From: Candidatus Altiarchaeota archaeon
GTDB lineage: Archaea > Altiarchaeota > Altiarchaeia > IMC4 > SCGC-AAA252-I15
Length of the DNA: 64,000 nt
NCBI GenBank assembly: GCA_043813075.1
Contig: JBDRLL010000003.1
Span: 54,606-118,605, forward strand
Direction of reading: 5' to 3'
Below the pieces are notes generated by a model, which was not told where the DNA came from, made no database searches, and worked only from the letters and a program-made list of their open reading frames with translations. The translations under genes and the position numbers were made by a program. This document shows positions 6,133 to 54,161 of the stretch, piece by piece. The stretch's first letter is position 1. Every line of letters starts with the position of its first letter.

Positions 6133-6187
6133 AAGAAGATAATCGTATGACGGCTATAAAAAAGGCAGCGCTCCCTAAAGTAATCAC

Positions 6188-7330: not shown

Positions 7331-7345
7331 AGCAAAACAATTGCT

Positions 7346-8356: not shown

Positions 8357-8410
8357 AGATGGTGATCGACCTAGACTCAGTTATATTCTGGCACCTAAAT
8401 TATTATCAAG

Positions 8411-9367: not shown

Positions 9368-9368
9368 G

Positions 9369-9959: not shown

Positions 9960-9983
9960 TGTTGATAGGTATTGGTTTTAAGA

Positions 9984-10337: not shown

Positions 10338-10349
10338 ATATCATTAGAA

Positions 10350-15163: not shown

Positions 15164-15230
15164 CGTGATTTATATATGATGGCGCCCTAAGAATAAAAGC
15201 TTGGATAAATTATCCAAGTGAGGTTTTGGA

Positions 15231-16208: not shown

Positions 16209-16231
16209 ACCCAGGACAACCACCGCATGAT

Positions 16232-16777: not shown

Positions 16778-16829
16778 ATTGTATTATGGGCATCCAAGAT
16801 TTTTATGCTCGTAACTGGATTATCTTGAC

Positions 16830-21426: not shown

Positions 21427-21487
21427 TATTTTAGTAGAGTATATTAACAGGCCATAAAGAAAACTGGGGGGCAAGCCACAAAGCGTA

Positions 21488-37024: not shown

Positions 37025-38344
37025 ATGGGTTCATGCACGCTGATACTAAACTACGGGAGATGCGGTTGGGGTTCATGCCTCTTCTGCGGCTATGGAAGGT
37101 CATCGGGCAGGAAGCCTGACGTCGACGCATTAAAGAGGGAATTCGACGACTTCTTCGGAAAGATGGGGGAGGACGCGGAAGAAGTGAAGGTGTTCAGTTC
37201 CGGAAGCTTCTTGGACGACAGGCAGATACCGGCGGAAGCCAGGAGACACTTCATAGGGAAATGCATGGAGAAGGATATAAGGAGGGTGACTATAGAATCC
37301 CGCCCGGAATACGTCACAAAAGAAAAGCTCGAAGAATTCGAGGGGGTGAAGGTCACCCTGGCGATAGGATTAGAGTCCGCGGACAACCAGGTTCTTGAAA
37401 GGATAAACAAGGGATTCAGGAGGGAGGACTATGAGAGGGCTGCGGACATTGTGAAAAAGTCAGGGGGTGATGTTAGGACATATCTGCTCGTGAACCCGCC
37501 ATACGTGAAGGATGTCTGTAAGAGCGTGGATGATTCCGTTGAATACGCGTTAAAACACTCTGACAGCATAGTCCTGATAAACCTCCTCCCACACAGTAAC
37601 GCGCCGCTATTCAAGAAATGGGTTGCAGGAGAATGGAGCTTCCTAGATAGGAGAGGATTCGATGAGGCGACAGCCCGGTGGGCTGACAACCCTAAAATCG
37701 AACTGGATTATGAGACATTCAAGTTCACGCCGCAATTCCCAGACCATATGAAGACGCCGATAAATGGCGTTGGGGAGGAGTATCTGACACACCCCTATTT
37801 CGAGGCCTGGCAGGACTATCTGGACAGGTTCTACCAGCCGTCTGAACGGAAGAAGACGCTGCTCCTCCTACCATGCAGCTACAGGAAACCGTACAGCGAG
37901 TCAAAGACCCACAAGGAGATAATAGGGGTTATCGGGGAAATCGGCGGGAGAGACCGCATACACGAAGTCATGCTCAGTAATGCGGGAGTCATACCAAGAG
38001 AATTCGAGGACAGATACCCCTTCAACGCATACGATTGGGATGAGAGCCTGGAGACGCCGGAGATAAGGAAGAGGTATGTGCAAGTCACGTCAGAGAGAAT
38101 AGCCAACTATTTAAGAGCGCACGGAAAAAGATATGACAGGAAGGCCTGCTACCTCCGGAGAGCGTCGGACTCCCATCAGGCAGTCGAGAAGGCGTTCAAA
38201 GAGCTTGGTATGGAATTCGACAACCTGCTTTCCCCAGAAACCGACGGCAAACTAGATGGCGGGACAAGCGGCCTTAGGAAGCCGGAAGCGCTAGATGATT
38301 TGAGGGAGGGTTTAAGACGGCTACTGCAAAATTCCACGCGATAG
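37025..38344 (+). CDS. fusion protein: RaSEA-like radical SAM domain + ArcS-type C-terminal (PC-X3-KPY-X2-S-X2-H) domain; archaeosine biosynthesis
   Basis: N-terminus CGWGSCLFCGYG with a radical-SAM/TIM-like region; C-terminus LLLLPCSYRKPYSESKTH matches the ArcS signature motif. Confidence 0.55.
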   Translation: MGSCTLILNYGRCGWGSCLFCGYGRSSGRKPDVDALKREFDDFFGKMGEDAEEVKVFSSGSFLDDRQIPAEARRHFIGKCMEKDIRRVTIESRPEYVTKEKLEEFEGVKVTLAIGLESADNQVLERINKGFRREDYERAADIVKKSGGDVRTYLLVNPPYVKDVCKSVDDSVEYALKHSDSIVLINLLPHSNAPLFKKWVAGEWSFLDRRGFDEATARWADNPKIELDYETFKFTPQFPDHMKTPINGVGEEYLTHPYFEAWQDYLDRFYQPSERKKTLLLLPCSYRKPYSESKTHKEIIGVIGEIGGRDRIHEVMLSNAGVIPREFEDRYPFNAYDWDESLETPEIRKRYVQVTSERIANYLRAHGKRYDRKACYLRRASDSHQAVEKAFKELGMEFDNLLSPETDGKLDGGTSGLRKPEALDDLREGLRRLLQNSTR

Positions 38345-39652: not shown

Positions 39653-40183
39653 ATGAGGATACTCTGGTGCGTGACTGGCGCAAGCCACCTGCTGGAGGAA
39701 ACCACCAGAATAATGCTTGAAACAGCCCAGAAGAACAAAGTAACTGCGGCATTCTCAAGGGCTGGGCTGGAAGTATCCAAGGTTTTCGGCGAATACGATA
39801 GGATGACTGCCGCGGCTGAAAAAACACTCTTCGAGGGGGAGGAGGGTGCGAGCTCGCCCATATGCATGAGCCTTGACTCCTATGGTCTGGTGGTAGTCGC
39901 ACCATGCACCGCTAACACGGCCGCAAAACTGGCGCACGGCATAGCGGACTCGCTTGTGACAAACATCGCAGCCCAGTCAATGAAGAGGGGTAAGGACATA
40001 CTGATACTCCCAACAGACTCTGAAGGGGAAGCGAGCTCGAAAACACTTTCAGGGAAAGAGATTAGGATTAGATGCAGGGGCGTTGACCTGGAGAACGTTG
40101 AAAGACTCGCTTCAGAGGGAGTAGTGGTGGTGAAGACGCCAGGCCAGCTCAGAGAAATGCTCGGCAGACATAAACGCCCTTAA
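39653..40183 (+). CDS. flavoprotein of the CoaC/AfpA (archaeal flavoprotein) family
   Basis: MRILWCVTGA..., VVVAPCTANTAAKLAHGIADSLV matches the PPC-decarboxylase/flavoprotein fold. Confidence 0.7.
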   Translation: MRILWCVTGASHLLEETTRIMLETAQKNKVTAAFSRAGLEVSKVFGEYDRMTAAAEKTLFEGEEGASSPICMSLDSYGLVVVAPCTANTAAKLAHGIADSLVTNIAAQSMKRGKDILILPTDSEGEASSKTLSGKEIRIRCRGVDLENVERLASEGVVVVKTPGQLREMLGRHKRP

Positions 40184-41144: not shown

Positions 41145-42611
41145 TCACACTGAATTATCCACGCCCTTAGACGGCTTAAATAGCAGGATAATGCGCAATA
41201 CGCGCAATAGAGGCTTCATCAAGGCATGGAACATTCTTGTTCTCCCGAACAGGAGGTGGGCTTTACCGCCGATTATCGCACGGTTTATCATCTTCCTGCC
41301 CACCGGGTTTTCATAGCTTGTCGCCAGGTTCTTCCTGAATATCCGCTTGTTGGACATACGTAGTACTTCTTCCGCTTTCTCTGTGTCGAAGCCTACCTTA
41401 CAGACGTATGACATGTGATCCCAGTAATCCAGGTCTGTTATGCCGACTTTCCCTTCCTCAAGGAATTCGTCCATAAGCCTGCCGTGGGGGGTGAACTTCT
41501 GGTAGACCACCATGCTGGGATTCACTTCGTCCATGAAGTCTGTCTTCTCGACTATCGAATCCATTGATTCCAGGGGAGAGCCGACTATCATGGAGGCTAT
41601 GACAAACACCCCGTTTTCAATCAGTATTGAGAACACCTCCTTGACTCGCAAGGCATCGTATCTCTTGCCGTAGTATCCCATTATCTCCTCGTTAACGTCC
41701 TCAATGCCGAAGAGTATGGCCTTCACCCCAGCCTCGCGAGCTAGGGGTATCAGGTCAGGGTGGCTTATGAACGTGTCGACCCTCGCCTGGATGCTCGCGT
41801 TGATATCCAGCTTCCGCTCTGAAATGAGTTGCAGCAGCCGCCTGGTCTTGGAGACGTCGCCGAAGAAGTTGTCGTCAGCGAACATCAGGTTTTTCACACC
41901 CATGCTCCGGGCATAGTATTCGATGTCTTCAGCCATGCGTTCGGGACTCCTTGTCCTGTATGGTGTGAAGAAGTCTTTTGAGGAGCAGAACAGGCATTTG
42001 TGGGGGCACCCCCGGGACCAGTCGACCAGTAGGAATGGTTTTTCACACCATACGAAGTCGTAGTCATTGACGTCTATCAGCCTGAAGTCCGGGCGGGGCA
42101 GGTCATCCAAGTCAACCGTATCCTGTCTCCCAGAGTATCTGACCGCGCCGTCCTCCAGATAGTAGACCCCCTTAACCAGGGAGACTGGCTTGCCTGAATC
42201 GATCGAGTCCACGAGGCTCTTGAAGACAAAGTCTCCCTCGCCGGAGACTATGTAGTCCATAACCCGGCCCTTGAGTAGTGATTCGAAGTCCCGGTCCCTG
42301 AAGAAGATGTAGCTGCCTCCTGCGACAATAACCATGGTGTCGTCGAGCTCACGCAACTCCCTTAAGAGCTTTAGTGATTTAGTGTATGAAACGGTGTGAA
42401 GCAGGCTTATGCCCAGCACCTGAGGCTTGAACTCCCTCACCGCGTCGAACAGGATGCTGTCACCGCAAGCAGTCAAGTCTATAAGACGCACTTCATGGTC
42501 AGGCTCAAGGATTGCGGCGATATACAGCAACCCTAGGGGCATCGCATTACCCAGAACTGATTCGACGTTAGAGTCGGGATTGACAAGTAAAACCCTCATC
42601 CTGGATAACAA
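41145..42611 (-). CDS. B12-binding domain radical SAM protein (class B), paralog 1
   Basis: N-terminal B12-binding Rossmann (RVLLVNP...MVIVAGG..YIVSGEGD) followed by SRGCPHKCLFC (CX3CX2C). Confidence 0.8.
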   Translation of the reverse strand: MLSRMRVLLVNPDSNVESVLGNAMPLGLLYIAAILEPDHEVRLIDLTACGDSILFDAVREFKPQVLGISLLHTVSYTKSLKLLRELRELDDTMVIVAGGSYIFFRDRDFESLLKGRVMDYIVSGEGDFVFKSLVDSIDSGKPVSLVKGVYYLEDGAVRYSGRQDTVDLDDLPRPDFRLIDVNDYDFVWCEKPFLLVDWSRGCPHKCLFCSSKDFFTPYRTRSPERMAEDIEYYARSMGVKNLMFADDNFFGDVSKTRRLLQLISERKLDINASIQARVDTFISHPDLIPLAREAGVKAILFGIEDVNEEIMGYYGKRYDALRVKEVFSILIENGVFVIASMIVGSPLESMDSIVEKTDFMDEVNPSMVVYQKFTPHGRLMDEFLEEGKVGITDLDYWDHMSYVCKVGFDTEKAEEVLRMSNKRIFRKNLATSYENPVGRKMINRAIIGGKAHLLFGRTRMFHALMKPLLRVLRIILLFKPSKGVDNSV

Positions 42612-44087
42612 TTATACTTTATCAAGGTATAAGCGCCTGGCCGCCCCCCATAATCTCCATTCCACAGGATGGTTGAAGTACCTCCGCCGCCACCTGGCTT
42701 CAGCTGAAATATTGAAGAGGTAGTGGAATACATCGTATGCAGCCACCATAAGACTGCTTCCCCCAAGCCACGCCTTCTTCACCTCCGGACCCCTGGAGGC
42801 CAGCCGCTCATGGAAGTGGGTGAAGCGGACTATGTTTGATATCGTATCCAACTGGGACTGGGCTTCCATGCTCATCCAGGGGAGACGCACGGAGTCGAAC
42901 CTCCATCCACCCCATTCTTCCAGGGAACCATGCACCATCATGCCCTGGGAGACCGCGGTTTCATGGATGGGCGTGCCAGGCTGGGGTATGAGCATCCATA
43001 GGTTACATACCTCCGTCCTAGGGTTCAGCCTCCTGAGCTCGTCCACCAGGCTGAGGGTCTTGGACAGGTCTCCTGGAGTCTCATCAGGCCAGCCGATGAT
43101 GAAGCTCACCATTGGCGTTATCCCATAGTCCCCGCACTTTCGGACAGAATCAGTTATCTGGCTGACTGTGATACCCTTCCCAATCCCGTCAAGTATCCTC
43201 TGGGAGCCTGACTCAGCGCCGAAAAACAGCGTCTCGCATCCGCTATCCCCCAGGAGTCTGGTGAACTCATCATCGTATCCGGAGAAATAGTCAGCCCTAT
43301 TATAGGCCATCCACTTCACGTCCCACCCCTCCCGTATTATCGCCGAGCAGATGCTCCGCATCCTCTCCTTGTCGACAAAGGAGTTGTCCTCCTGGAAGGT
43401 TATGCTGTTTGCGCCGACTTCTTCTATTATGTTCCTTAGCTCCTCCACCACAACCTCGGGTTTCTTCGCCCTCCAGCCGCCCTTGCTGTAGCAGTGGTTA
43501 AAGCAGAACGTGCAGTTGTGGGGGCATCCCCTGCTGGACTGGTAGGAGAAGTATTCCCTGCAGTCGATGTATTTACGCAAGTCCACCAGATCGTAGTGGA
43601 GGCTGCCTATGGCGTTCATGTCCGTGAAACCCCTCGGTGGGGTTGAGACGACAACCCCGTCTTTCTTGAATGCGATTCCGTTGACATCCTTTAGCGGACC
43701 CTCATCCCTGACAGTGTTGGCAAGCTCTATGATGGTTTCCTCGCCGTCACCACTGACGGCGATGTCGACGAGACTGCTGGCCGCAGTCTGCTCCGGCAGC
43801 ATCGTGGCGTGGGGCCCGCCCCATACTATCGGGATGTTTGGGTCTTCCTCGCGTATCATGCCTGCGACAGCGAGGCCGTGGCTTATCTGCGGCCCTGTCA
43901 TGGATGTTATGCCTGCCAGAAGATACTCGCCGTCGAGATGCTTGAGGTCTTGAATCCGTGTGTCCACGATTTTCGGGTCGTAACCAGCATTCCGGAGGAC
44001 TGTTCCAAGGTTTAGGAGCGGGAGCGGCATGTAGGGCGCCCTCTCTTTTTTTCCAGGGTATATCAGGAGTATTTTATCTGTCGCCAT
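42612..44087 (-). CDS. B12-binding domain radical SAM protein (class B), paralog 2
   Basis: DKILLIYPG..IVWGGPHATM..IAVSGDGE B12-binding domain, SSRGCPHNCTFC radical SAM; the start is moved to the internal MATDK Met (residue 44 of the ORF); contiguous with paralog 1. Confidence 0.8.
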   Translation of the reverse strand: MATDKILLIYPGKKERAPYMPLPLLNLGTVLRNAGYDPKIVDTRIQDLKHLDGEYLLAGITSMTGPQISHGLAVAGMIREEDPNIPIVWGGPHATMLPEQTAASSLVDIAVSGDGEETIIELANTVRDEGPLKDVNGIAFKKDGVVVSTPPRGFTDMNAIGSLHYDLVDLRKYIDCREYFSYQSSRGCPHNCTFCFNHCYSKGGWRAKKPEVVVEELRNIIEEVGANSITFQEDNSFVDKERMRSICSAIIREGWDVKWMAYNRADYFSGYDDEFTRLLGDSGCETLFFGAESGSQRILDGIGKGITVSQITDSVRKCGDYGITPMVSFIIGWPDETPGDLSKTLSLVDELRRLNPRTEVCNLWMLIPQPGTPIHETAVSQGMMVHGSLEEWGGWRFDSVRLPWMSMEAQSQLDTISNIVRFTHFHERLASRGPEVKKAWLGGSSLMVAAYDVFHYLFNISAEARWRRRYFNHPVEWRLWGAARRLYLDKV

Positions 44088-44127
44088 GCTTAATGTTTGA
44101 TGATTATTACAAGAGTACCATATAAAG
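44088..44127. promoter_or_regulatory. short divergent promoter region between B12-rSAM operon (minus) and Tes-like rSAM (plus)
   Basis: 40-nt AT-rich spacer (ttattacaagagtaccatataaag) between divergent starts. Confidence 0.35.
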
Positions 44128-45468
44128 ATGGAGTTGGGGAAAAGCAGGAGCCTCTGTCCCATATGCCTGAAGGAGATTGACGCGAGCATAATCCAGGATG
44201 ATGGGAGGGTGTTCATCTCTAGGGAGTGCGCTGCGCATGGATTGTTTGTTGACCCACACCTCTACGAGGATCCGGTCATATACAAGGCGCTCTCCAACAT
44301 GGACTGCGGCGGGGATGACGTCCTACCGGACACTCTAGTGTTCCACACTACACCAGCATGCAACATGGACTGCCAGTTCTGCCCTATACCAGGCGAGATG
44401 AGGTCTGGTGAAGGCCCTGAGATAGGTGAGATTATGGATGAGGTCTCCAGATTCCATGGGTCTACCATATTCCTGTGCGGGGGAGAGCCGACCATAAGGG
44501 GGGATTTGCCGGAGATAGTCGGGAAAATCTCAGGTGCAGGGAAGAATGTGCTGGTCTTCACCAACGGACTGAGACTAGCGGACAGGAAAAACGTGGATTC
44601 CCTCAAGGCCACAGGCCTGACCCAGGTCATACTCTCGTTCAGCACGTTTCAAGAGGAGAAGGACATTAAAGTCTACGGCTCCCGCGTCACTTCATTGAAG
44701 CTGAAGGCCTTGGAGAACCTGAAGGCCACGCTGACCCCGACCGGCTTCTCATTCCTAGTATTCAAGGACATTAACGAAGACGAGGTGGATAAGGTGATCG
44801 GATACGCGGTAGACAACCGGGAGTGGGTCAAGAGCATATGCTTTCAGGTGGTCTGGAGGCCTTCCGAAAGGGACTCCAGCATGGTGAAGCAGAAGGGGAT
44901 AATAGACCTTGTGCGAAAATCCGCTGGAATTGATGTTGAAGACTTCATAGAATGCACTGTCTTCGGCAGCACTGTGTCTGAGATTTTCAGGAGGATTACG
45001 GGCAGGGGTGGGCGCGTGTATTCCAGGTGCGAGCTAAGATGCCAGTCATGGGTGTCAGATGGACGACTTGTGCCATTATCCGGGATGATTGATTTGAAGA
45101 CTGTGAACGAATCGCTACGGAGAATTAACAGCCGCCTCAAGGGGTCAGCAGCCCGGAAGATTGGTGTGATGATCTTGTTTTTCCCTTACACAGAATTATT
45201 GAAGTCGTTCATATTCAACAGGGACTTCAGAAACTTCTGCCTTAGCAGGTTTTCAGGCATGCTCTCAGGTATAGTGCACGGCAGGATGTTCCGCGAGTCG
45301 TTGGGGAAGGACATGCTCGGATTCATGGTGGGGAGATATTATACCAGGTACAACATCGACTTGGGGTTGGCGGATACTTGCAGGTACTGCAGGTCTCCTG
45401 AGGGAAACGACATCTCATACTGCATATGCGATATGATAGGGTGGACTGAGAACAAGCAGACTGCTTGA
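44128..45468 (+). CDS. radical SAM protein, Tes/GDGT-MAS-like candidate (paralog A) with N-terminal Cys/His knuckle
   Basis: CPICLKEIDA...ECAAHG N-terminal motif; PACNMDCQFC (CX3CX2C); GGEPT glycine motif; ~445 aa. Confidence 0.55.
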   Translation: MELGKSRSLCPICLKEIDASIIQDDGRVFISRECAAHGLFVDPHLYEDPVIYKALSNMDCGGDDVLPDTLVFHTTPACNMDCQFCPIPGEMRSGEGPEIGEIMDEVSRFHGSTIFLCGGEPTIRGDLPEIVGKISGAGKNVLVFTNGLRLADRKNVDSLKATGLTQVILSFSTFQEEKDIKVYGSRVTSLKLKALENLKATLTPTGFSFLVFKDINEDEVDKVIGYAVDNREWVKSICFQVVWRPSERDSSMVKQKGIIDLVRKSAGIDVEDFIECTVFGSTVSEIFRRITGRGGRVYSRCELRCQSWVSDGRLVPLSGMIDLKTVNESLRRINSRLKGSAARKIGVMILFFPYTELLKSFIFNRDFRNFCLSRFSGMLSGIVHGRMFRESLGKDMLGFMVGRYYTRYNIDLGLADTCRYCRSPEGNDISYCICDMIGWTENKQTA

Positions 45469-45490
45469 TGAGCCGCTTGGTCCTGGTGAG

Positions 45491-46828
45491 TCATGGATTA
45501 TCTGATTCCCGCGACCGGAACACTTCCCTAAGGCAGAACGGAACGACTCTATCTCCCTCAAAGCCTCCGAGACTGCAGCAGGACATGAATTCATAATCCA
45601 CGTTTGACGCGTCAAAATACCTGTTAGCTATTATACTGCACACCTGAGGCAGCATCATTGTTATCGGATGGTCATTTTCCGCAATGATCTTCCATAATCC
45701 GGATGCGCTCGGCAGCATGAACAATATTGCGCGCGCGTCTCTGACGCTAGAGAGGAATGCGAGGATAGTCTTCACTAGGGCGCCTGCTTTCCCTGCTTTT
45801 CCATTGAAGTCTGTGCTAACGCTTATCTTGGATAGCCTTTCTGAGAGTGCCTGCATGTCCAGCAGATGGTTTAAAGGCGTTAGAGAATCCCCCATACGGA
45901 CTAGGTATAGCCGTAGGTAGCATGCTGAAACCCGCCTACCACCCCTCCCAGACATCTTTCGCATAAGCTGGCTGAAGCAGAAGCCGAACCTGGTGCACTC
46001 GAGGAAGTCTTCCAAGCAGGTTCCCAGATGCATGCATACCAGATCAGCGGACTTGCTTGCAGGCACTGAACGCCCCGCGTCATTCCCATTTGGATTCCAG
46101 TAGGATGAGAAAGCTAAACCCCTTATCCTACCCCTATGACGCCTCAAAAGTTCTATGAAGCCTGGAACCTGGTCCTCGTTTACGCCGTCCCGTAGGACAA
46201 CATTCAGGAAGACTGGTATGTCTAGTTGAAGTAGGTTTTTTAACGCCCCCATCTTCTTCCCGACCACTTCCTCGCCGTATAGCCGGATGCCCTGACCAGC
46301 ATCCAGTGTGTCCAATGAGAGCACTATCAGTGGCTTGTTTCTTGAGAATGAACTGGCATAATCCATGCTGCCCAGCCTAATCCCGTTGGTGAAGAATGAG
46401 GGATGATATCCCATAGACCTTAATTCACCTATTATCCCCGGCAGGTCGTCGCGCATGGTAGGCTCCCCGCCGAACAAGTATATTATGGAGCCGCCGAACC
46501 CAGCGGCAGTGGAGACTAATTCTTCCAGAGATATCGGATGTTCTTCCACCATGCCTTGAGGCTTAAAGCAGTCTGGGCAGTTCATGTTGCATAATCCGGT
46601 GACATCCAGAAAAGCAGTGTCCGGAGACCATTCACCGTCTTCAGGGTCGATGGCCAGGAGTGACTTCATTGACGCGTAGACTTGCTTGTCTTGGAAAACG
46701 TGCGGGCTCACTGAAGTGCCATGCTCCGGGCATTCCTGCCTTATGAACATTCTCCCGCCATCCTCGAAGACCGTTGCATCAACATCCCTCAAGCACTTCG
46801 GACAGATGCTCCGTGAATTTGATTCCAA
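45491..46828 (-). CDS. radical SAM protein, paralog B of 44128-45468
   Basis: CPKCLRDVDA...ECPEHG; GLCNMNCPDC (CX3CX2C); GGEPT; collinear similarity to paralogs A and C. Confidence 0.55.
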   Translation of the reverse strand: MESNSRSICPKCLRDVDATVFEDGGRMFIRQECPEHGTSVSPHVFQDKQVYASMKSLLAIDPEDGEWSPDTAFLDVTGLCNMNCPDCFKPQGMVEEHPISLEELVSTAAGFGGSIIYLFGGEPTMRDDLPGIIGELRSMGYHPSFFTNGIRLGSMDYASSFSRNKPLIVLSLDTLDAGQGIRLYGEEVVGKKMGALKNLLQLDIPVFLNVVLRDGVNEDQVPGFIELLRRHRGRIRGLAFSSYWNPNGNDAGRSVPASKSADLVCMHLGTCLEDFLECTRFGFCFSQLMRKMSGRGGRRVSACYLRLYLVRMGDSLTPLNHLLDMQALSERLSKISVSTDFNGKAGKAGALVKTILAFLSSVRDARAILFMLPSASGLWKIIAENDHPITMMLPQVCSIIANRYFDASNVDYEFMSCCSLGGFEGDRVVPFCLREVFRSRESDNP

Positions 46829-46940
46829 AAAAACCCCTCAAACACAGATTATGAGACAGGCAAGATATATTATTGTTAAGTTCTGATATTCAATAATATC
46901 AAGGGTGTACGCTAGTGCAAAGAATTTCCGAATGGTTTGA

Positions 46941-48605
46941 ATGAAAATCAGGTTGAGCTGCTTTAATCCGTTCTCATATAGCATAACCCCCCTCGGACTG
47001 GGATACAAAAACGCTTCCCACAACAACGCTGGACACGACTCTATGATACGCCTTTTTGAACGGGAGGAGTCAGCGTTCTACGACACACTGCTGTCGATGG
47101 ACTTTCTTGGGAAGAGATTCCCGCTAATATCGATACCAGAATACATACAACAGATCGAACTGGTGGAGAATGAAGTTTTCGCAGAGGAGCTCGGCTTCAT
47201 AGACAGGGGGGAGATGAACTACAGGTCCAGATTCCCCTCTGAAACAGAGAGGCTGGTTGGGATATGCGACTCCATAGCGGACAGCCTGTCAGGCAACAGT
47301 ATGGTGGGATTCAACATAACGTCAATAGCCATGGGACCGACACTATACATCTCGAAGGCAATTAGGGAGAGGGATGATGGCGTGAAGATAGTGTATGGGG
47401 GGCCGATAACAGACATGATGGCTGGAGTTTTAGACCCCATAAACGCCATGCACAAGTCCATCAACGAGTCAATGAGGAGTAGCGGCATATACGGGAGGTA
47501 CGCTGATTTTCTGGCTGGGAACGTCGACTTCCTGGTTCACGGTGAGGGTGAGGAGACTATTGTGGAAATTGCTAATGCGATTGATGATGGAGGTGACGCG
47601 GAGATACCGGGGACTACCGCCATCAGGGAGGGGTCTTTCAAGAGGAGTCGCCCTAGGAGGCCTGTTGACTTGGATGGGATATGCCGTCCAGACTTTGATG
47701 GCATAGACATGAGGACGTACGGGTATGTCACGTTCAACTTCTCCAGGGGTTGTATTAACGCGTGCACGTTCTGTGACGAGTGCCTGTTCTTCAAGGGCTA
47801 CAGAGTCAGGGATCCGGCAAAGGTTTTGGAGGAGTTGAGCGCCGGCTCAGAGAGATATCCTGGTAAAAGGTTTCTCGCGTGCGACAGCCTGCTGAACGGA
47901 GACCCTGCGAGGCTGAAGGAGCTCTGCAGGCTGATTACTGAGTCAGGGCTGCGTATAGACTGGAGCGGATACCTGCGGCTGCCTGAGACGGACGAGGAAC
48001 TAGTAGACCTGCTCTATGAGTCCGGTTTCAGGAGGCCGAAATTCGGTTTAGAGACCATCGACGATGGGGTCTATGAGGAGGTTGGCAAGCGGCAGGAGAC
48101 CGGTCACGCGCTTAGGATCATGGACTACTGCAGGAGGAAGGGCATGAAGGTGACCGCGAACTTCATGATCGGGTATCCGGGGAGGGGAATGGACTTCGAG
48201 CTGGAGGTGATGGATAGGGTTAAGGGCATACGAGGGCACTATGATTACATGCCGCTTGAATCGATAAACGTGGGTATAAGGTCGAGTGTCGCGAGCGACC
48301 CTGAGAGGTGGGGTTTCGAGATAAAAAGCACCCATGAATTCAGTGAGAGTGACTGGGAGTATTATACACTGGCAAGGTCGTATATCCCGGGAATCATAAC
48401 GTACACGAGGAATTCGCTGTCACGAAGCGAGGCTGAGAGGATATTCGAGGAATACAACAGGCACGGTCTTCTCAACAAGAGGGGGTTGGAGTATGGACTC
48501 CACAAGTATGGATTAGGATGGCTGAAAAAGTATAGGCGGTATATTCCGTTCAGCATATCCAACTGGCTTAAGCTCCAGTATCTTAAGGAGGAGATAATCA
48601 TTTGA
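46941..48605 (+). CDS. B12-binding domain radical SAM protein (class B), paralog 3
   Basis: KIVYGGP..LVHGEGEE B12-binding-like N-terminus; FSRGCINACTFC radical SAM core. Confidence 0.75.
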   Translation: MKIRLSCFNPFSYSITPLGLGYKNASHNNAGHDSMIRLFEREESAFYDTLLSMDFLGKRFPLISIPEYIQQIELVENEVFAEELGFIDRGEMNYRSRFPSETERLVGICDSIADSLSGNSMVGFNITSIAMGPTLYISKAIRERDDGVKIVYGGPITDMMAGVLDPINAMHKSINESMRSSGIYGRYADFLAGNVDFLVHGEGEETIVEIANAIDDGGDAEIPGTTAIREGSFKRSRPRRPVDLDGICRPDFDGIDMRTYGYVTFNFSRGCINACTFCDECLFFKGYRVRDPAKVLEELSAGSERYPGKRFLACDSLLNGDPARLKELCRLITESGLRIDWSGYLRLPETDEELVDLLYESGFRRPKFGLETIDDGVYEEVGKRQETGHALRIMDYCRRKGMKVTANFMIGYPGRGMDFELEVMDRVKGIRGHYDYMPLESINVGIRSSVASDPERWGFEIKSTHEFSESDWEYYTLARSYIPGIITYTRNSLSRSEAERIFEEYNRHGLLNKRGLEYGLHKYGLGWLKKYRRYIPFSISNWLKLQYLKEEIII

Positions 48606-49222
48606 CACATAGGGGAGAGCTTACCGGAGAATTGCCTGAACCCGACTGGGATGCGGTCTGGGGCAGGAATTTAGGCAAGAATCTGACGGTATTTAGGGTA
48701 TACTCTGGGCTCAGGTTCAGAAGCTATAGAAGACTGTTCAGTGGACTGGACCTGGAGGGTAGGGGGGTGCTGGAGATAGGGGGTGGGACAGGACAGTTAG
48801 GCAGCATGCTTGGGAGGGAATTCAAGTGCAATGTAACACTGATAGACGATAGTGAAGAGGCTTTCAGATTCCACTCCAGATTCGGCATAAAAGGGGTGGA
48901 TTATGTGAGGGGGGATGTCTTCAGGCATGAGGGAGTCTACCATCTAGTCTACAGTGACGGGCTTATAGAACACTACAGGGGCGCTAAGAGGGAGGATCTG
49001 ATACGGCGTCATTCCCTGTTATGCGGTGAGGGGGGTTACACCGCCTTTTTTGTGCCAAAAAAATCGTTTTTCGTTGACATGTTCCTCACACTCAGGGGCT
49101 ATTACGAGGAGAAGTACGACGTGGATGGCATCACTTCAGAGCTGGAGGAGAATGGCCTTGAGGTCCTCAAGACTGTGGAGGATTTCCATATGATAGGTGT
49201 GTTATGCGAGCAGAGGGGATAG
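48602..49222 (+). CDS. class I SAM-dependent methyltransferase
   Basis: VLEIGGGTGQLG (motif I), LIDDSEE (acidic motif II); overlaps both neighbours, so it is operonic. Confidence 0.65.
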   Translation: MTHRGELTGELPEPDWDAVWGRNLGKNLTVFRVYSGLRFRSYRRLFSGLDLEGRGVLEIGGGTGQLGSMLGREFKCNVTLIDDSEEAFRFHSRFGIKGVDYVRGDVFRHEGVYHLVYSDGLIEHYRGAKREDLIRRHSLLCGEGGYTAFFVPKKSFFVDMFLTLRGYYEEKYDVDGITSELEENGLEVLKTVEDFHMIGVLCEQRG

Positions 49223-50559
49223 CCTTTGAGGCAAGGACTAGGAGCCTCTGCCCAGTTTGCCTCAAGCAGGTGGACGCGAGCGTAAGGATTATTGAGGGTA
49301 AGGTCAGCATCAGCAAGGAATGCGACAAGCATGGCTCCTTCGAGTCGCCGCATTTTTGGGGTGATGAAGTGCTTTATCACGCGATGAAGAGGATAGCGGA
49401 CATGTGTGATGACGGGGTACCCCCGGACAACCTCGGGTTGTATCTCACACAGAAGTGCGATTTGAGTTGCAGCTACTGTTATCTGAAGGATAATGAGGAG
49501 GGGATGGAAGAGCCGAGCATAAGCGATGTCTTAGATTATGTGTCCGGATTTAAGGGGTCGACTGTCATACTAAGCGGGGGGGAGCCGACACTCAGGGACG
49601 ACCTGCCTGAGATAATCAAGGTGGTGCGGGAGAGAGGATACATGATTGTGCTCGCGACAAATGGCATGAGGCTTTCGAGAGAATACGTGGAAGACCTGAA
49701 GTCATGCGGTTTGGGCATGGTGATGCTGTCTTTCACGACCTTTAAGGAGGAATACTCAGAGAGACTGCAGGGCATCAACACTGTCGAGGCTAAGAGAAGC
49801 GCTGTAAGAAACCTTAATGACGCATGCATCCCATTGTTCCTCTACATTCCTGTTTTGAGGGGGGTGAACGACAGTGAGATAGGCGCATTCATAGATTACG
49901 CCAAATCCGTGAATGCGGTGAGGGCGGTTGACTTCAATGTGACAACACACCCAGGAGGATTCTCAGACAAGCTGACGCTCACACAGAAGGAGATTATCGA
50001 CGTGATAGGAGAGCATACTGGCGTTGGCGTTGAGGACTTTACGGACTGCACGTTATCCGTGCACCTTGCATCAGAGGCATTAAGGAAGGTATTAGGTGGT
50101 GGGAGGAGGAGTTCAGGATGTTATCTGAGACTATACTTCCTCAGGTCAGGGGAGGTCTTAAGTCCAGTGAGCGGGATTCTGGACTTGAAGTATGTTAACA
50201 TGAGGCTTCTATCAGCCAACGCTATCCTTGACTCGAAATCACCGCTCAGGAGAATCAAGGCGTTGAGCATCATCGCGGGATTGTTCCTATCAACCGCTTG
50301 GCGGAATCAGGAGGGGATGATGCTTTGTTCAAGTGTTGTCAGAAGCATTGCCTCCAGGAGAGGTGGCTCGTCTGCTGGCGGCGGATTACTATGCATTAAT
50401 GTTATGCGATTCAACGACCGCTTCAACGCTGACCTTGGTTTCACTCGGGCATGCTGCTCGCACAGCATCAGGAATGCTTCAGAGAAGCCAATGTGCGCGT
50501 GCATTAGGGAAATGTATTTCTGCAGGCCGCCTGTCTTTAAGAAAAGGAATCTAAAGTAG
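49204..50559 (+). CDS. radical SAM protein, paralog C of 44128-45468
   Basis: CPVCLKQVDA...ECDKHG; TQKCDLSCSYC (CX3CX2C); SGGEPT; ~450 aa. Confidence 0.55.
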   Translation: MRAEGIAFEARTRSLCPVCLKQVDASVRIIEGKVSISKECDKHGSFESPHFWGDEVLYHAMKRIADMCDDGVPPDNLGLYLTQKCDLSCSYCYLKDNEEGMEEPSISDVLDYVSGFKGSTVILSGGEPTLRDDLPEIIKVVRERGYMIVLATNGMRLSREYVEDLKSCGLGMVMLSFTTFKEEYSERLQGINTVEAKRSAVRNLNDACIPLFLYIPVLRGVNDSEIGAFIDYAKSVNAVRAVDFNVTTHPGGFSDKLTLTQKEIIDVIGEHTGVGVEDFTDCTLSVHLASEALRKVLGGGRRSSGCYLRLYFLRSGEVLSPVSGILDLKYVNMRLLSANAILDSKSPLRRIKALSIIAGLFLSTAWRNQEGMMLCSSVVRSIASRRGGSSAGGGLLCINVMRFNDRFNADLGFTRACCSHSIRNASEKPMCACIREMYFCRPPVFKKRNLK

Positions 50560-50565
50560 TGTATA

Positions 50566-52746
50566 ATGCAATTCTGGCGTGGGGGTATTGCAAGGGACTT
50601 GCTGTTCCTGGTCTGCCTTTCTGCGGTTATACTAGTCATCGGAGCATCCAGCATAAGGGAGAAGTCTCCAGTATGGGACGAACCATATTATGTTGGAGCG
50701 GGATACTACATGCTCAGACAGTGGGATAAACCGTGGATAAACTATACCAGCCTAGTTCCCATAATAACGCACCCCCCGCTACCGTATTACGTCAACAGCA
50801 TACCGTTCTACATATACGACTTGATTGGCGACTTCTCGGATGGAGGATTGTTTGATACAAATGAGAGCGAACTAGTCACGTATCCGCCACCAAGCGTGGA
50901 TGAGATATTGGATTTGAAGAGGGATTATCCTGAAAAATTCGGGCAGAGATTCATATACTCTGACGAATACGAGGAGTACGACCTCCTGTTCTACTCGAGG
51001 TGCTCGATGCTACTATTGCTGATACTATGCAGCACATACATGTTCGTGATTGCCAAGAGATACTACGGTTTCGAGACGGCCTGCGTGATAACCGCTTTAT
51101 TCTCGCTAAACCCGAGCATACTCGCACACGCCAGGCTGGCGACAACCGATATCGCTCCGGCATGCTTTAATCTCATATCATTCTACTACTTCACGCTTTT
51201 CATGGAGAGGAAGAGTCTGACGAGGGGTCTTGCTGTAGGCATAACACTCGGACTGGCCTTGCTCAGCAAGGAATCCAGCACCTACCTGCTGGCACTATAT
51301 TCCGCAATAGTATTCATCCGACTAGTGTCATGGTTTGTGTCGAGGGTCGTGCATGTAGTAAAGACTTGTTGTGGTCTTATGAGTGATAAAAACAGAATGT
51401 CCGAGTCCATCGCGTCGATGCTAACTTGGAGTAGGTTTAGGGGGAGCCTCCCGCTCTTAGGGCTCATAACGCTCATCTCACTGACAGGTGTTTCAGTATA
51501 CCATGGCGGGGAAAAAAGCACTATAGTATACGTTGTGGTGATAACGCTTTTCATGATCTTCTACTCTGAGGGGAGGAAGAGGGCTTTCATTGGTTTTGTC
51601 AGATGGTTTTTCCGGCTTTTGAGGTCGCTGACACCATACGCGATGATTGTTGTTTTAGCGACAACCACATTGAATGCGGGGTACTTGTTCACGGAGATAA
51701 ACTACGACTGGCTCGAGAACTGGGGGGGTATCCTGCTAAAGGACGTCCGCTTCTCGCAAGACGAGATGATGGATAGGAGCATTAGGGGTTATGCCCTTGG
51801 CTTGAGACTGCCTGTGTCAGACTACTACCTCTACACTATAATGAATACGCGAGTTCATATGAGGGTCGGGCACCCAAGCTACATAAAGGATGTTATAATC
51901 TCTAGTAGGGAGGTGGGCGAGATGAAACCCGGATTCGTGGAGGACGAGATGCTGAAGATAAGGGAGGGTGTTAGTGTGAAGAAGAGGATGGACTACTGGG
52001 TGACGCTATTCCTGATAAAAGCCCCTGAAGGGCTTCTGATACTGCTGCTCTTCTCGATATTCTACTTCTTCTCAAACCAATTCAAGAGGGGGATAGTCAA
52101 CGATAAGTTGACATGGTTCAGGACGTGCCTTGTGCTGAACATAATCACGGCCTGCATGATGATTCTCGCATCAACCATACTGATTGGCGTAAGACTTGTG
52201 TTATTCATATTTCCGCTATTGTATCTACTACTAGCGGAGCCGATGAAGGCTCTGCTGTCTGGCGGCAGAACCTCCAGGAGACTAGCATACATCATCATAG
52301 CATTATCGGTACTCCCAGCTGTCATATACCACCCGCACTACATCCCCTACTTCAATCAGTTGGTTGGCGGCCCGGAAAACGGATACACTTACGCTTCAGA
52401 CTCGAATGTTGACTGGGGTCAGGATTTGCCTGGCCTGAAGGAGTATATGGACGAGAAAGGCATTGACGAGATTAAACTGGCATACTTCGGGACCGCGAGG
52501 ATAGATGAGTATGGGATAGAGTATTTTTCACTGCCAAACAACCAGGGGATAGAGATGTTCTCTGGGCAGCGGAGTCCTGACGTGGAGTGCGGCCCTGTTG
52601 AGGGCATACTCGCAGTCAGCGCGACAAGCCTGACAGGGCAGTTCGGAGACCCCGGATGCTATGAGTGGCTTAGAGGCTACGAACCGATGGACAACATAGG
52701 ATATTCCATACTAGTCTATAACATCACCAATGCAACAGCAGGCTAG
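50566..52746 (+). CDS. GT-C fold membrane glycosyltransferase, PMT/ArnT (GT39/GT83)-like
   Basis: 726 aa, >10 TM helices; first-loop VWDEPYYVGAGYYM (DE motif) is typical of PMT_2/ArnT-family lipid-linked-sugar transferases; last gene of the rSAM operon. Confidence 0.55.
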   Translation: MQFWRGGIARDLLFLVCLSAVILVIGASSIREKSPVWDEPYYVGAGYYMLRQWDKPWINYTSLVPIITHPPLPYYVNSIPFYIYDLIGDFSDGGLFDTNESELVTYPPPSVDEILDLKRDYPEKFGQRFIYSDEYEEYDLLFYSRCSMLLLLILCSTYMFVIAKRYYGFETACVITALFSLNPSILAHARLATTDIAPACFNLISFYYFTLFMERKSLTRGLAVGITLGLALLSKESSTYLLALYSAIVFIRLVSWFVSRVVHVVKTCCGLMSDKNRMSESIASMLTWSRFRGSLPLLGLITLISLTGVSVYHGGEKSTIVYVVVITLFMIFYSEGRKRAFIGFVRWFFRLLRSLTPYAMIVVLATTTLNAGYLFTEINYDWLENWGGILLKDVRFSQDEMMDRSIRGYALGLRLPVSDYYLYTIMNTRVHMRVGHPSYIKDVIISSREVGEMKPGFVEDEMLKIREGVSVKKRMDYWVTLFLIKAPEGLLILLLFSIFYFFSNQFKRGIVNDKLTWFRTCLVLNIITACMMILASTILIGVRLVLFIFPLLYLLLAEPMKALLSGGRTSRRLAYIIIALSVLPAVIYHPHYIPYFNQLVGGPENGYTYASDSNVDWGQDLPGLKEYMDEKGIDEIKLAYFGTARIDEYGIEYFSLPNNQGIEMFSGQRSPDVECGPVEGILAVSATSLTGQFGDPGCYEWLRGYEPMDNIGYSILVYNITNATAG

Positions 52747-52749
52747 CGG

Positions 52750-53040
52750 CTATGCTTTGGAAGGAGTGTTCTGGAATCTGCTCCAGTAGGCTAGGGCAGA
52801 TACTGTCACCAAGATTATAACCAGGTAAGAGGTAAGTGAGGTTATGGCTATGCCAGCATTCTTGTTTATAAAGTATATTATAAGATGTGGTATCACACCC
52901 AGTATGGCGCTTAATCCGATCCTCTCGACTATACTGACGTCATTGCGCTTAGGGAATATTGCGAGGGATAGGGCGTACCCAGGGACGAATATGAACAAGA
53001 GGGAGATTATTGTGCCCCAGAATATGCTTTGACCGTCCAT
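52750..53040 (-). CDS. small membrane protein
   Basis: 96 aa, three TM helices. Confidence 0.35.
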   Translation of the reverse strand: MDGQSIFWGTIISLLFIFVPGYALSLAIFPKRNDVSIVERIGLSAILGVIPHLIIYFINKNAGIAITSLTSYLVIILVTVSALAYWSRFQNTPSKA

Positions 53041-53075
53041 CCTTTATTATTACACAACAAGCCCATAAAAAGCCT

Positions 53076-54161
53076 TTAAAGCATGTCTGCAATGAAGAAG
53101 GGCGAGTAGGCGAGGAATTTGACCGCGAACCGGGGGTTGAAGGCTAGGCTGCTGATAACCCTTGACGCATAGTCCATGTCGCCCCCACTCTCAAGACTGC
53201 CCCTTACAGACTGGAGTAGGTCGAAGAGACGATCCAGACTCTTTGGTGAAAGCCCGGATAAGAAACGATGTATGAACAAGTGCATGAGAAGCTCGCGTCC
53301 GACCGCCCTCTTCCATTCGCGCTCGTATTGGTCGCTGAAAGCATATTCAGCAGCCAGACCGCCCATGACGATTCCGCCGCCGGTGGAAGCCTTCACCTGC
53401 CCTCCAGCATCCCCCACAGTCACCAGACCATCGTACTGCGTCCTCATCGACGGCTTGTGTATGGGTATTATCCCGTAGTGCTCGTCGAACACCGTGTCTT
53501 TTCTGAGGCGGCCTTCATCACGCAGTTTTTTCACGAATGCCTCCATGTAGGGCCTTGGATTTCTCTTGGTGCAGAGTCCGATGCGAGCACGGTCCCCGAT
53601 GGGTATGACCCATGCGAAGAAGTCAGGGACGGTGAAATACAATTCAGCGAAATCATTGTCGCATTCAACGTCCATCTCGTACTGCATTCCAATGAGGAAT
53701 TCGCTCGGCTTTTCAATGCCCATTGTGATGTGGAGTGAGTAGTCCGTTCCGGTGGCGAGGGCTATTCGGTCGGCCTTTATCTTGGAGCCGTCACTGGTGG
53801 ATATTGTGCCATTGACGTCAACCACGCGGCCGGTGGCCCGGACTGCTCCCGCATCAACTGCCTTGTTTAAGAGGTGGCCGTCAAAACCTATACGATCCAC
53901 CACACACGCCATCGTCTTGCCGCCATCAGCCTCGAACAGCACGCCCCCTGGAGAGTAGAACCTCGCGCCACGAATCCTGTTCAATATGAAATCCCCGTCA
54001 CTAACGCCCAGTCTCTCAAGTCCAGACTTGCTTATCAGGCCCGCACACTGGACCCTGCAGACGTCGCCGCCTATCAGCGCGACATCCATTGACTTGGCGG
54101 CGTGCGTTGCTGCGATACAACCTACGGGGCCTGCACCCACCACAGCAGCGTCATATTTCAT
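53076..54161 (-). CDS. ggr: digeranylgeranylglycerophospholipid (geranylgeranyl) reductase
   Basis: MKYDAAVVGAGPVGCIAA (FAD GxGxxG), ~360 aa, FixC/GGR family architecture. Confidence 0.85.
   Translation of the reverse strand: MKYDAAVVGAGPVGCIAATHAAKSMDVALIGGDVCRVQCAGLISKSGLERLGVSDGDFILNRIRGARFYSPGGVLFEADGGKTMACVVDRIGFDGHLLNKAVDAGAVRATGRVVDVNGTISTSDGSKIKADRIALATGTDYSLHITMGIEKPSEFLIGMQYEMDVECDNDFAELYFTVPDFFAWVIPIGDRARIGLCTKRNPRPYMEAFVKKLRDEGRLRKDTVFDEHYGIIPIHKPSMRTQYDGLVTVGDAGGQVKASTGGGIVMGGLAAEYAFSDQYEREWKRAVGRELLMHLFIHRFLSGLSPKSLDRLFDLLQSVRGSLESGGDMDYASRVISSLAFNPRFAVKFLAYSPFFIADML

Follow-up and report, generated by a model that had tools for sequence, protein, structure and literature searches.

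A gene island at positions 41145-52746 of a 64-kb stretch of Candidatus Altiarchaeota DNA (contig JBDRLL010000003.1; below, the window) encodes six radical S-adenosylmethionine (SAM) proteins, and the closest described relative of three of them is the radical SAM enzyme GDGT-MAS, also known as Tes (MJ0619). GDGT-MAS has a rubredoxin-like iron site formed by C9, C12, C33 and H36, and a second, N-terminal [Fe4S4] cluster bound by C73, C77, C80 and a histidine (PMC9433317). The other described enzymes of relevance are B12-dependent radical SAM (B12-rSAM) proteins, a class which includes GrsA/B and the methylases of glycerol monoalkyl glycerol tetraethers (GMGTs) and glycerol dialkyl glycerol tetraethers (GDGTs) (PMC13459092, 10.1101/2025.10.20.683597). 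Altiarchaeota have a canonical tes gene and contain glycosidic archaeols, GDGT-0, and unexplained extended glycerol trialkyl glycerol tetraethers (GTGTs) and GDGTs; the grs genes (grsA/B) are reported to be absent from a metagenome-assembled genome (MAG) of Ca. Altiarchaeum (PMC13003381). A specialized tes clade behind the extended GTGTs and GDGTs has been sought, and none was found (Groninga et al. 2026).

Judged from sequence and a structural model, the three relatives of GDGT-MAS, which we term TesL1-3, belong to the Tes/GDGT-MAS superfamily and appear to keep three of its four metal sites; their sequences indicate that they are not Tes orthologs. The island is more interesting than a plain set of Tes paralogs, being one instance of a recurrent unannotated system in which one to four Tes-fold radical SAM proteins without the N-terminal cluster are encoded together with several B12-rSAMs, and often with a GT-C glycosyltransferase, a member of a particular subfamily of UbiA prenyltransferases and a small methyltransferase. 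As the best explanation, in which we place about even confidence, we propose that the island encodes an uncharacterized radical SAM pathway that would tailor a membrane isoprenoid lipid, the substrate being either an archaeal ether lipid or another prenyl-anchored molecule. The six radical SAM genes, the methyltransferase and the GT-C protein recorded in the first-pass annotation are all present:

41145..42611, minus strand: B12a, B12-binding and Radical_SAM domains, 488 aa, CX3CX2C motif GCPHKCLFC
42612..44216, minus strand: B12b, B12-binding and Radical_SAM domains; open reading frame (ORF) of 534 aa, 491 aa from the probable start
44128..45468, plus strand: TesL1, Zn_ribbon_HMPTM and Radical_SAM domains, 446 aa, NCBI MFH1402815.1
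45491..46828, minus strand: TesL2, Zn_ribbon_HMPTM and Radical_SAM domains, 445 aa, convergent with TesL1
46941..48605, plus strand: B12c, Radical_SAM domain, probably of the B12-rSAM class, 554 aa; first gene of a four-gene operon
48602..49222, plus strand: class I SAM-dependent methyltransferase, 206 aa, with Pfam matches below the gathering scores
49204..50559, plus strand: TesL3, Zn_ribbon_HMPTM and Radical_SAM domains, 451 aa
50566..52746, plus strand: GT-C glycosyltransferase (PMT/PMT_2, GT39-like), 726 aa

Relationship of TesL1-3 to GDGT-MAS

TesL1-3 are 32-35% identical to one another over their full length, and each matches both the N-terminal domain family PF23545 (Zn_ribbon_HMPTM; 50-51 bits against a cut-off of 27) and PF04055 (Radical_SAM; 46-93 bits). 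The best solved relative of TesL3 is GDGT-MAS/Tes (7TOL, E 5.5e-40, residues 5-422). An AlphaFold2 model of TesL3 built from 59 sequences (pLDDT 87, pTM 0.88) was compared with known structures using Foldseek, giving TM-scores of 0.78-0.80 over ~490 columns to 7TOL and 7TOM and of at most 0.40 to every other radical SAM structure, where only the core is matched. The structural comparison suggested in the first-pass annotation thus groups TesL3 with GDGT-MAS and not with the SPASM peptide maturases.

The ligands of three metal sites can be traced in the sequences. The knuckle C-x2-C-x20-C-x2-H of TesL1-3 has exactly the spacing of the rubredoxin-like iron site of GDGT-MAS, and its residues (C16, C19, C40 and H43 in TesL3 numbering, equivalent to C9, C12, C33 and H36 of GDGT-MAS) are invariant in a 7-sequence alignment. 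The radical SAM cluster cysteines C85, C89 and C92 are also invariant in the alignments, as are the C-terminal-cluster cysteines C306, C417 and C431 in 59 of 59 family members. The description of the three proteins as ~450-residue paralogs with a CX3CX2C core and an N-terminal Cys-x2-Cys...Cys-x2-His knuckle was therefore correct. The motif of the N-terminal [Fe4S4] cluster, by contrast, is absent from TesL1-3 and their relatives, which have a single CX3CX2C (the radical SAM motif) only. Our motif survey comprised 80 loci from GTDB species representatives and several metagenome loci, with canonical Tes as the control set; all 76 canonical homologs (archaeal, bacterial and TrsS-like) have two CX3CX2C motifs exactly 25 residues apart. 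The C-terminal [Fe4S4] cluster of GDGT-MAS has a labile ligand, Met439, and the two groups also differ at the equivalent position, which is Met in 49/49 two-motif proteins and in 2/10 single-motif proteins (TesL3 and P0002). TesL3 is the sole paralog in the window to keep it, TesL1 having Gly and TesL2 Asn. The Altiarchaeota-type members have a further conserved cysteine, C282, that is never found in canonical homologs.

The family scores and the tree position place TesL1-3 apart from Tes. TesL1, TesL2 and TesL3 score 128, 104 and 158 bits with the Tes model NF045702 (cut-off 450) and 116-166 bits with the TrsS model NF045646 (cut-off 490), and they are 25-30% identical (E 1e-31 to 1e-41) to the canonical Tes genes of the loci that we fetched. 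The literature criterion for Tes is a BLASTP e<1e-50 to MA_1486/Saci_0703 (PMC8941075). TesL1-3 fall below the thresholds of the published surveys (PMC8941075, PMC13003381), which would consequently not count them. In a neighbor-joining tree (415 columns, 100 bootstraps; a simple distance method) all two-motif sequences, including the Tes proteins of M. okinawensis and of the Altiarchaeota LacPavin genome (L083), form a clade with 93% support, and TesL1-3 lie outside it. The three paralogs form an 81% clade with sequences from loci L003 and L001, which indicates that the three copies arose inside this lineage.

This evidence bears directly on the proposal that TesL1-3 are ordinary Tes isozymes making GDGT-0, GTGT or macrocyclic archaeol, with the island as a core GDGT pathway plus ring synthases. 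GDGT-MAS is indeed their closest characterized protein in both sequence and fold, Altiarchaeota do make GDGT-0 (PMC13003381), and two Tes homologs occur in some methanogens (PMC8941075). These points are outweighed by the missing N-terminal motif, the loss of the Met439-equivalent from TesL1 and TesL2, family scores and E-values that fall short of the respective limits, and a position outside the very clade that holds an Altiarchaeota Tes. In addition, the single-motif clade is found in bacteria, and the second homolog of M. acetivorans, MA_1114, does not figure among those for which GDGT formation is reported (PMC8941075). We consequently reject canonical Tes isozymes on motif loss, scores and tree position, and regard such an identity as improbable. 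The resemblance to Tes/GDGT-MAS noted at the outset thus stands for superfamily and fold and falls for orthology.

One Tes homolog (L074, 9971-11512) lies inside the canonical archaeal clade, yet has one CX3CX2C motif, and there is a B12-rSAM gene 4 kb away. The N-terminal cluster may have been lost independently here, or the start of the gene may be miscalled.

The C-terminal helical region (TesL3 residues 322-400) is the counterpart of the lipid-pocket part of GDGT-MAS. Its mean Kyte-Doolittle hydropathy falls from +0.32 in the single-motif clade through -0.11 in archaeal Tes and -0.39 in other bacterial two-motif homologs to -0.87 in Clostridial TrsS-like proteins, while the hydropathy of the TIM core is equal in all groups. 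No clear transmembrane helix was found in TesL1-3. The hydrophobic C-terminal region thus favors a hydrophobic substrate or peripheral membrane binding.

The single-motif clade extends well beyond the window. In an exhaustive HMMER profile search, which covered 1.84 billion representatives, the best 150 matches (262-560 bits) are all full length, and 146 of the 147 new proteins among the matches listed are single-motif. The clade therefore comprises at least ~150 clusters at 50% identity. Word-indexed protein searches had given only ~9 members, and the impression of extreme rarity that they conveyed is corrected by the profile search. The members that carry a taxon name belong to Altiarchaeota/Altiarchaeales, Nanoarchaeota, Omnitrophota and Planctomycetota, to which the fetched loci add Elusimicrobiota and Thermodesulfobacteriota; the databases name them only 'radical SAM protein', and our literature search found no paper describing a single-motif Tes-like clade. 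The pathway proposed here is conserved and patchy in distribution, and has probably spread by horizontal transfer.

Gene neighborhood and partner proteins

The strongest functional evidence is the gene neighborhood. Using hidden Markov models built from the window proteins, we recorded partners within about 10 kb of the Tes-like gene at 12 independent single-motif loci and 75 canonical loci. A B12-rSAM gene is present at 10 of the single-motif loci and at 1 canonical locus (Fisher p=1.8e-10), and a GT-C gene at 5 and 1 respectively (p=1.2e-4). The single-motif clade is thus genomically coupled to B12-rSAMs, to GT-C proteins and to one UbiA subfamily, and this is so in both archaea and bacteria.

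The individual loci show how far the arrangement is kept. Orthologs of B12c, the methyltransferase and TesL3 stand in this order in L003 (69%, 65% and 55% identity). The synteny comparison advocated in the first-pass annotation found the core order conserved in Ca. Altiarchaeales GCA_014727915.1 (L094), where TesL1(+), TesL2(-) and B12c(+) are retained at 43%, 46% and 53% identity and are accompanied by two more Tes-like paralogs, a UbiA protein, a methyltransferase, a PMT protein and a second glycosyltransferase-like membrane protein. The archaeal locus L009 has two Tes-like genes, B12-rSAMs and a GT-C gene that overlaps the stop of the second Tes-like gene, so that here, as in the window, GT-C comes immediately after a Tes-like gene. 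The Omnitrophota loci L004 and L084 combine Tes-like genes with two to three or more B12-rSAMs, L004 having UbiA in addition and L084 PMT_2. Four B12-rSAMs, a GT1 glycosyltransferase and a flippase are found in L086 (Nanoarchaeota). Around the single Tes-like gene of L065 (Thermodesulfobacteriota, 4921-17651) are four clear B12-rSAMs, two B12-rSAM-like proteins, a MiaB-like radical SAM protein and a U32 peptidase, and L090 combines a B12-rSAM with subunits of pyruvate:ferredoxin oxidoreductase.

Two features of these loci may be recorded separately. L065 is the densest B12-rSAM cluster among the loci examined. In L090 (4469-5310) and L091 (240-1081) a Tes-like gene is apparently split into a 71-aa Zn-ribbon ORF and a 208-aa radical SAM ORF, the pyruvate:ferredoxin oxidoreductase subunits preceding the split copy and an intact Tes-like gene following closely after it.

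The B12-rSAM proteins of the island are assigned at the level of class. B12a matches the Pfam families B12-binding (PF02310; 52 bits, cut-off 32) and Radical_SAM (66 bits), its best NCBIfam match being BchE at 167 bits (cut-off 481). B12b matches the same Pfam families (43 and 73 bits), and its NCBIfam matches ApyD, BchE, PhpK and HpnJ (133-147 bits) are all far below their cut-offs. B12a is 24-27% identical to B12b and B12c. For B12c, Pfam gave Radical_SAM alone and no significant B12-binding match, the 53%-identical ortholog in L094 having a 'faint' one; PDB searches returned weak matches only (best 9CCB, 34 bits). However, NCBIfam B12-rSAM families match B12c from about residue 130-190, and from residue ~126 it is 27-28% identical to B12a and B12b over ~300 aa. 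B12c is thus probably a B12-rSAM with a divergent N-terminal domain. The first-pass annotation had given all three proteins a B12-binding domain, which Pfam supports for B12a and B12b, the third being placed in the class by homology.

The combination of B12-rSAM C-methyltransferases with radical SAM cross-linking enzymes would also be expected of a cluster for a ribosomally synthesized and post-translationally modified peptide (RiPP) whose precursor is encoded elsewhere. B12a-c do score 88-147 bits with rSAM_ocin_1 and ApyD, two RiPP C-methyltransferase families, SPASM radical SAM proteins are common in the related loci, and L002 has a 48-aa ORF between two radical SAM genes. The family scores are nevertheless far below the cut-offs of 282 and 750, and the TesL fold is that of GDGT-MAS rather than of SPASM peptide maturases. 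The gaps between island genes are 22-112 bp, so that no precursor-peptide ORF fits, and the sole small ORF near the island (52750-53040) encodes a three-helix DUF1616-like membrane protein. Comparison of 13 related loci showed no small ORF common to any two of them, and genes for a protease, a leader-binding RiPP recognition element or a peptide exporter were not found in the island. The earlier remark that a precursor ORF is missing is therefore upheld for the island and extends to the 13 loci, and we reject the RiPP cluster, to which we attach almost no probability.

The window GT-C protein has a multi-helix membrane domain and a conserved soluble C-terminal domain. It matches PMT (PF02366; 41.2 bits, cut-off 22.7) and PMT_2 (PF13231; 38.2 bits, cut-off 26.1), has no NCBIfam family match, and is named 'phospholipid carrier-dependent glycosyltransferase' by NCBI. 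Its D38-E39, the DE motif of the first extracytoplasmic loop, is conserved in at least 90% of 41 homologs, and a second Altiarchaeota MAG has a homolog 61% identical. An AlphaFold2 model (pLDDT 85) has PDB fold matches that are all GT-C enzymes at TM-scores of 0.24-0.35, a result which confirms the fold class only and not the acceptor, be it lipid, protein or glycan. The methyltransferase matches Methyltransf_25/23/12/11 at E 1e-5 to 1e-3, narrowly missing the gathering scores, and its ortholog in L003 lies between those of B12c and TesL3. The UbiA genes of L002, L004, L092 and L094 are homologous (23-36% mutual identity) and match no named family, NCBIfam giving weak MenA-like matches only. 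Like the hydropathy of the C-terminal region, the linkage to this prenyltransferase subfamily speaks for a hydrophobic or isoprenoid substrate. A full-length homolog of the window GT-C protein (39% identical) lies between a UbiA gene of this subfamily and B12-rSAM genes.

A family of ~200-220-aa proteins without a Pfam match recurs beside GT-C or UbiA genes (L001 982-1611, L092 8359-9030, L094 2098-2733 and 15362-15961) and has no member in the window. Each protein has one N-terminal membrane anchor; three of the four have a C-terminal 'FPPTE' and the fourth 'QPTES'.

The same neighborhoods could be explained by tailoring of a glycan or of a polyprenyl-phosphate-linked sugar rather than of lipid tails. 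The radical SAM enzymes would then C-methylate, epimerize, dehydrate or cross-link carrier-bound sugars, and the GT-C protein would transfer these to a surface protein, the S-layer or a glycolipid. GT-C is second to B12-rSAM in enrichment near single-motif genes, these being the only two partners compared with canonical loci. L086 has GT1 and a Polysacc_synt flippase, L009 CBM11 domains and a phosphodiesterase, L002 a sulfatase/AlkP-type enzyme, and L001 a formyltransferase, an acyltransferase-3 and two PMT_2 genes. L092 has UbiA, a short-chain dehydrogenase/reductase, an FAD oxidoreductase and GT-C, a set that we take to resemble the mycobacterial decaprenyl-P-arabinose donor pathway and count in favor of sugar tailoring. 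Against it, lipid tails are what the sole characterized relative with the TesL fold binds, the single-motif clade has a C-terminal region more hydrophobic than that of Tes, and we know of no Tes-fold enzyme that acts on sugars. We regard tailoring of a lipid-carrier sugar or surface glycan as a serious rival, if on balance unlikely; it overlaps with the tailoring of a membrane isoprenoid lipid, since a polyprenyl-phosphate sugar carrier is itself a lipid.

Alternatively, TesL1-3 might act on a small-molecule cofactor, either as pterin methylases, the role once proposed for MJ0619 (HMPTM), or in a TrsS-like metallocofactor pathway, with the clustered B12-rSAMs tailoring the cofactor. The Pfam N-terminal domain bears the HMPTM name, the TrsS scores of TesL1-3 are about as high as their Tes scores, TrsS-like relatives occur in molybdenum cofactor (Moco) and CobW contexts, and a gene for an AfpA/DmrX-like flavoprotein lies 1 kb upstream of the island. 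However, the assignment of MJ0619 as HMPTM could not be corroborated, and the enzyme was shown to be GDGT-MAS (PMC9433317). Neither the window nor any of 12 related loci has Moco, CobW or NTP-transferase genes, which do occur around P0028 and P0195. TrsS-like proteins have two motifs and a strongly hydrophilic C-terminal region, unlike the single-motif clade, and GT-C and UbiA partners do not suit a soluble cofactor. The identification of MJ0619 as GDGT-MAS and the missing gene context lead us to reject the HMPTM/pterin methylase role, and a cofactor substrate in general is very improbable.

The TrsS-like branch itself can be described further. TrsS-like Tes-superfamily genes stand beside CobW in L087 (10001-11620) and L088 (10001-11356), the former near genes for XdhC, a molybdenum hydroxylase, MOSC, MoaA/MoaC and NTP_transf_3. 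Further TrsS-like proteins are P0132, P0135, P0140 and P0166, and fusions to NTP_transf_3 or HD domains are seen in some proteins of the TrsS-like type. A role related to metallocofactors is thereby suggested for the branch, rather than one in lipid metabolism.

The island in its genomic setting

The window has an archaeal gene content (PCNA, class I LysRS, a Hef-type helicase-nuclease, HerA, translin, primase, form III RuBisCO and eIF6). The GC content across the island is 0.49-0.55, the same as in its surroundings, and the island is flanked by housekeeping genes and so shows no sign of recent mobile insertion. The six radical SAM genes are intact and occupy 9.4 kb (41145-50559). Archaeal genomes have tens of radical SAM genes each, and six in 9.4 kb is well above the expected density, as had been proposed; recurrence of the clustering in independent genomes indicates that it is not due to chance. 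The operon 46941-52746 is tightly packed, B12c and the methyltransferase overlapping by 4 bp and the methyltransferase and TesL3 by 19 bp, with a gap of 6 bp between TesL3 and GT-C, in keeping with the earlier view that the methyltransferase and GT-C genes are co-operonic. Taken at its longest, the ORF of B12b overlaps TesL1 by 89 bp; this overlap disappears if translation begins, as is probable, at Met44 (44087). Scans for tRNAs, Rfam families and promoters or terminators gave nothing informative.

Two genes adjoin the island, and we treat them as neighbors rather than members of the system:

52750..53040, minus strand: 96-aa three-helix membrane protein resembling the N-terminus of DUF1616 (E 5.7e-8)
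53076..54161, minus strand: geranylgeranyl-reductase (GGR)-family flavoprotein, 361 aa, TIGR02032

The next gene after the island had been read as a digeranylgeranylglycerophospholipid reductase and its adjacency taken to argue for a lipid function, and neither point survives. The GGR-family protein passes the broad family model TIGR02032 (164 bits against 158.8), but scores only 60 and 44 bits with the digeranylgeranylglycerophospholipid reductase equivalogs NF041160 and NF041080 (cut-offs 780 and 580); its best PDB match is 3OZ2 (E 3.9e-15). The start of its gene overlaps the stop of a 233-aa gene downstream of purA, in a housekeeping operon on the strand opposite to the island operon, and the gene for the 96-aa membrane protein, the last of this purA-GGR operon, separates it from the island. 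No GGR-family homolog was found in any of the 94 fetched loci, so the adjacency is not conserved. Given the separate operon and the lack of conservation, we treat the GGR-family gene as a neighbor and reject its membership of the island operon.

A seventh radical SAM gene (37025-38344, plus strand) lies 2.8 kb upstream of the island. The N-terminal half of its product matches the archaeosine radical SAM protein RaSEA (140 bits, cut-off 212) and the C-terminal half the DUF5591/ArcS alpha-subunit region, so that by sequence it looks like a RaSEA-ArcS-C fusion, pointing to tRNA modification and not to the island. Its start abuts the stop of a gene for a 769-aa protein (34714-37023, plus strand) with sub-threshold helix-turn-helix matches only and no NCBIfam family. 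The 176-aa flavoprotein 1 kb from the island (39653-40183, plus strand) matches DmrX (120 bits) and the archaeoflavoprotein AfpA (101 bits), both below cut-off; that it might be an electron carrier for the radical SAM enzymes of the island is speculation. An operon resembling an energy-coupling factor (ECF) transporter (12264-15163, minus strand) encodes a weak S-component match, a double ABC ATPase and a CbiQ-like T component, and might, to judge from these matches, import cobalt or a corrinoid, which would be relevant to a host of several B12-rSAMs.

Elsewhere in the window, an adenylating enzyme resembling the PaaK/DVU_1553 family (20113-21546, minus strand; 147 bits, cut-off 300) is divergent from a MiaB-like-B methylthiotransferase (21488-22801, plus strand; 422 bits), the starts of the two genes overlapping. 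CapK/PaaK-like enzymes recur in three related radical SAM loci (L006, L086 and L092). The RuBisCO large subunit gene (4870-6132, minus strand; 331 bits) is presumably of archaeal form III.

A candidate lipid-tailoring pathway and its known counterparts

If the island tailors a membrane isoprenoid lipid, the following mechanism can be envisaged. TesL proteins would use 5'-deoxyadenosyl radicals to abstract hydrogen from unactivated sp3 carbons of a lipid tail, as Tes does, with the first radical parked on the C-terminal cluster before a C-C bond is formed by tail-to-tail coupling or cross-linking; the paralogs would differ in substrate or regiochemistry. The three B12-rSAMs may methylate, cyclize or desaturate the chains, activities known from the GMGT methylase Gmm, the GDGT methylases, the ring synthases GrsA/B and the tetraether desaturase Ted. 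The small methyltransferase would modify a heteroatom, and at the outer membrane face GT-C would attach a sugar taken from a polyprenyl-phosphate donor. Plain GDGT-0 should not be the product, as Altiarchaeota have canonical Tes for this. The macrocyclization, ring formation and methylation assigned in the first-pass annotation are not established by our analysis.

Several observations weigh against a lipid-tailoring function. In the neighbor-joining tree the single-motif sequences are not one resolved clade, but a paraphyletic grade under midpoint rooting. The best matches of B12a-c (BchE, ApyD, PhpK, HpnJ and RiPP C-methylases) are so far below cut-off as to be uninformative on function. The 64-kb window has no UbiA or other lipid-synthesis gene, and the unconserved GGR-family gene is of no help. 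The SPASM radical SAM proteins, GT1, Wzx-type flippase, CBM11 and AlkP-type enzymes of the related loci fit the tailoring of glycans or lipid-linked sugars equally well. The clade is also represented in bacteria whose membranes are made of fatty acids and in DPANN archaea considered to lack lipid synthesis, so that one 'archaeal lipid' substrate cannot hold for all members. Finally, TrsS-like members are found among XdhC, MoaA, MoaC, MOSC and CobW genes, some of them fused to NTP-transferase or HD domains, and membership of the Tes superfamily alone therefore implies no lipid substrate.

In its most ambitious form, the proposal would be that the single-motif clade together with B12-rSAMs, UbiA and GT-C constitutes an unrecognized pathway, spread horizontally, whose products are membrane-spanning (glyco)lipids that are cross-linked, methylated or both. 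The product in Altiarchaeota would be the extended isoprenoid GTGTs and GDGTs or another, perhaps outer-membrane, envelope lipid; in anaerobic bacteria such as Omnitrophota, Elusimicrobiota, Thermodesulfobacteriota and Planctomycetota, branched tetraether-like lipids would arise by Tes-like tail coupling, with methyl branches introduced by B12-rSAMs. We consider this full version unlikely.

Should the clade act on lipids, it would provide new C-C-bond-forming and B12-dependent tailoring enzymes for lipid biochemistry, a natural variant of the Tes mechanism that dispenses with the N-terminal cluster and the Met ligand, and candidates for the methylated branched tetraethers of anaerobic bacteria as well as the extended GTGTs and GDGTs of Altiarchaeota, for the enzymes of which the single-motif clade is a concrete candidate. 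Should it not, the GDGT-MAS fold has been recruited for other chemistry, a caution against equating 'Tes homolog' with tetraether marker. Tes homologs are used to predict producers of GDGTs and branched GDGTs, and the survey thresholds (e<1e-50 or >50% identity) miss the whole clade.

Compared with known systems, TesL1-3 share most with Tes/GDGT-MAS (MJ0619, 7TOL, NF045702), namely the fold, the rubredoxin-like site, CX3CX2C, the three C-terminal cysteines and the hydrophobic C-terminal helical region. They differ in lacking the N-terminal [Fe4S4] domain (CX3CX2C...H), in being 40-70 residues shorter, in keeping the Met in TesL3 only, in the extra C282, and in their B12-rSAM, GT-C and UbiA neighbors, which canonical Tes loci are without. 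TrsS (NF045646) and the bacterial Tes homologs belong to the same superfamily and have the same domain order; the TrsS-like proteins have both CX3CX2C motifs, CobW, Moco or NTP-transferase genes or fusions and a hydrophilic C-terminal region, none of which is seen with the window paralogs. The chemistry proposed for TesL would be akin to that of the GMGT synthase Gms and the bacterial membrane-spanning lipid synthase Mss, which form C(sp3)-C(sp3) bonds in lipid tails through two hydrogen abstractions, an auxiliary cluster holding the first radical; Gms is of the SPASM type and without a rubredoxin domain (PMC13459092). B12a and B12b have the B12-binding Rossmann domain and radical SAM core of GrsA/GrsB, Gmm, the GDGT methylases, Ted and HpnP/HpnR/HpnJ, B12c probably belonging to this class too; the weak NCBIfam matches of B12a-c include HpnJ and HpnR, and with all family scores far below cut-off this is a likeness at the level of class. 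The window GT-C protein, likewise, is of the same class as ArnT, Pmt, STT3 and AglB (PMT/ArnT type, GT39/GT83), at the TM-scores of only 0.24-0.35 given above.

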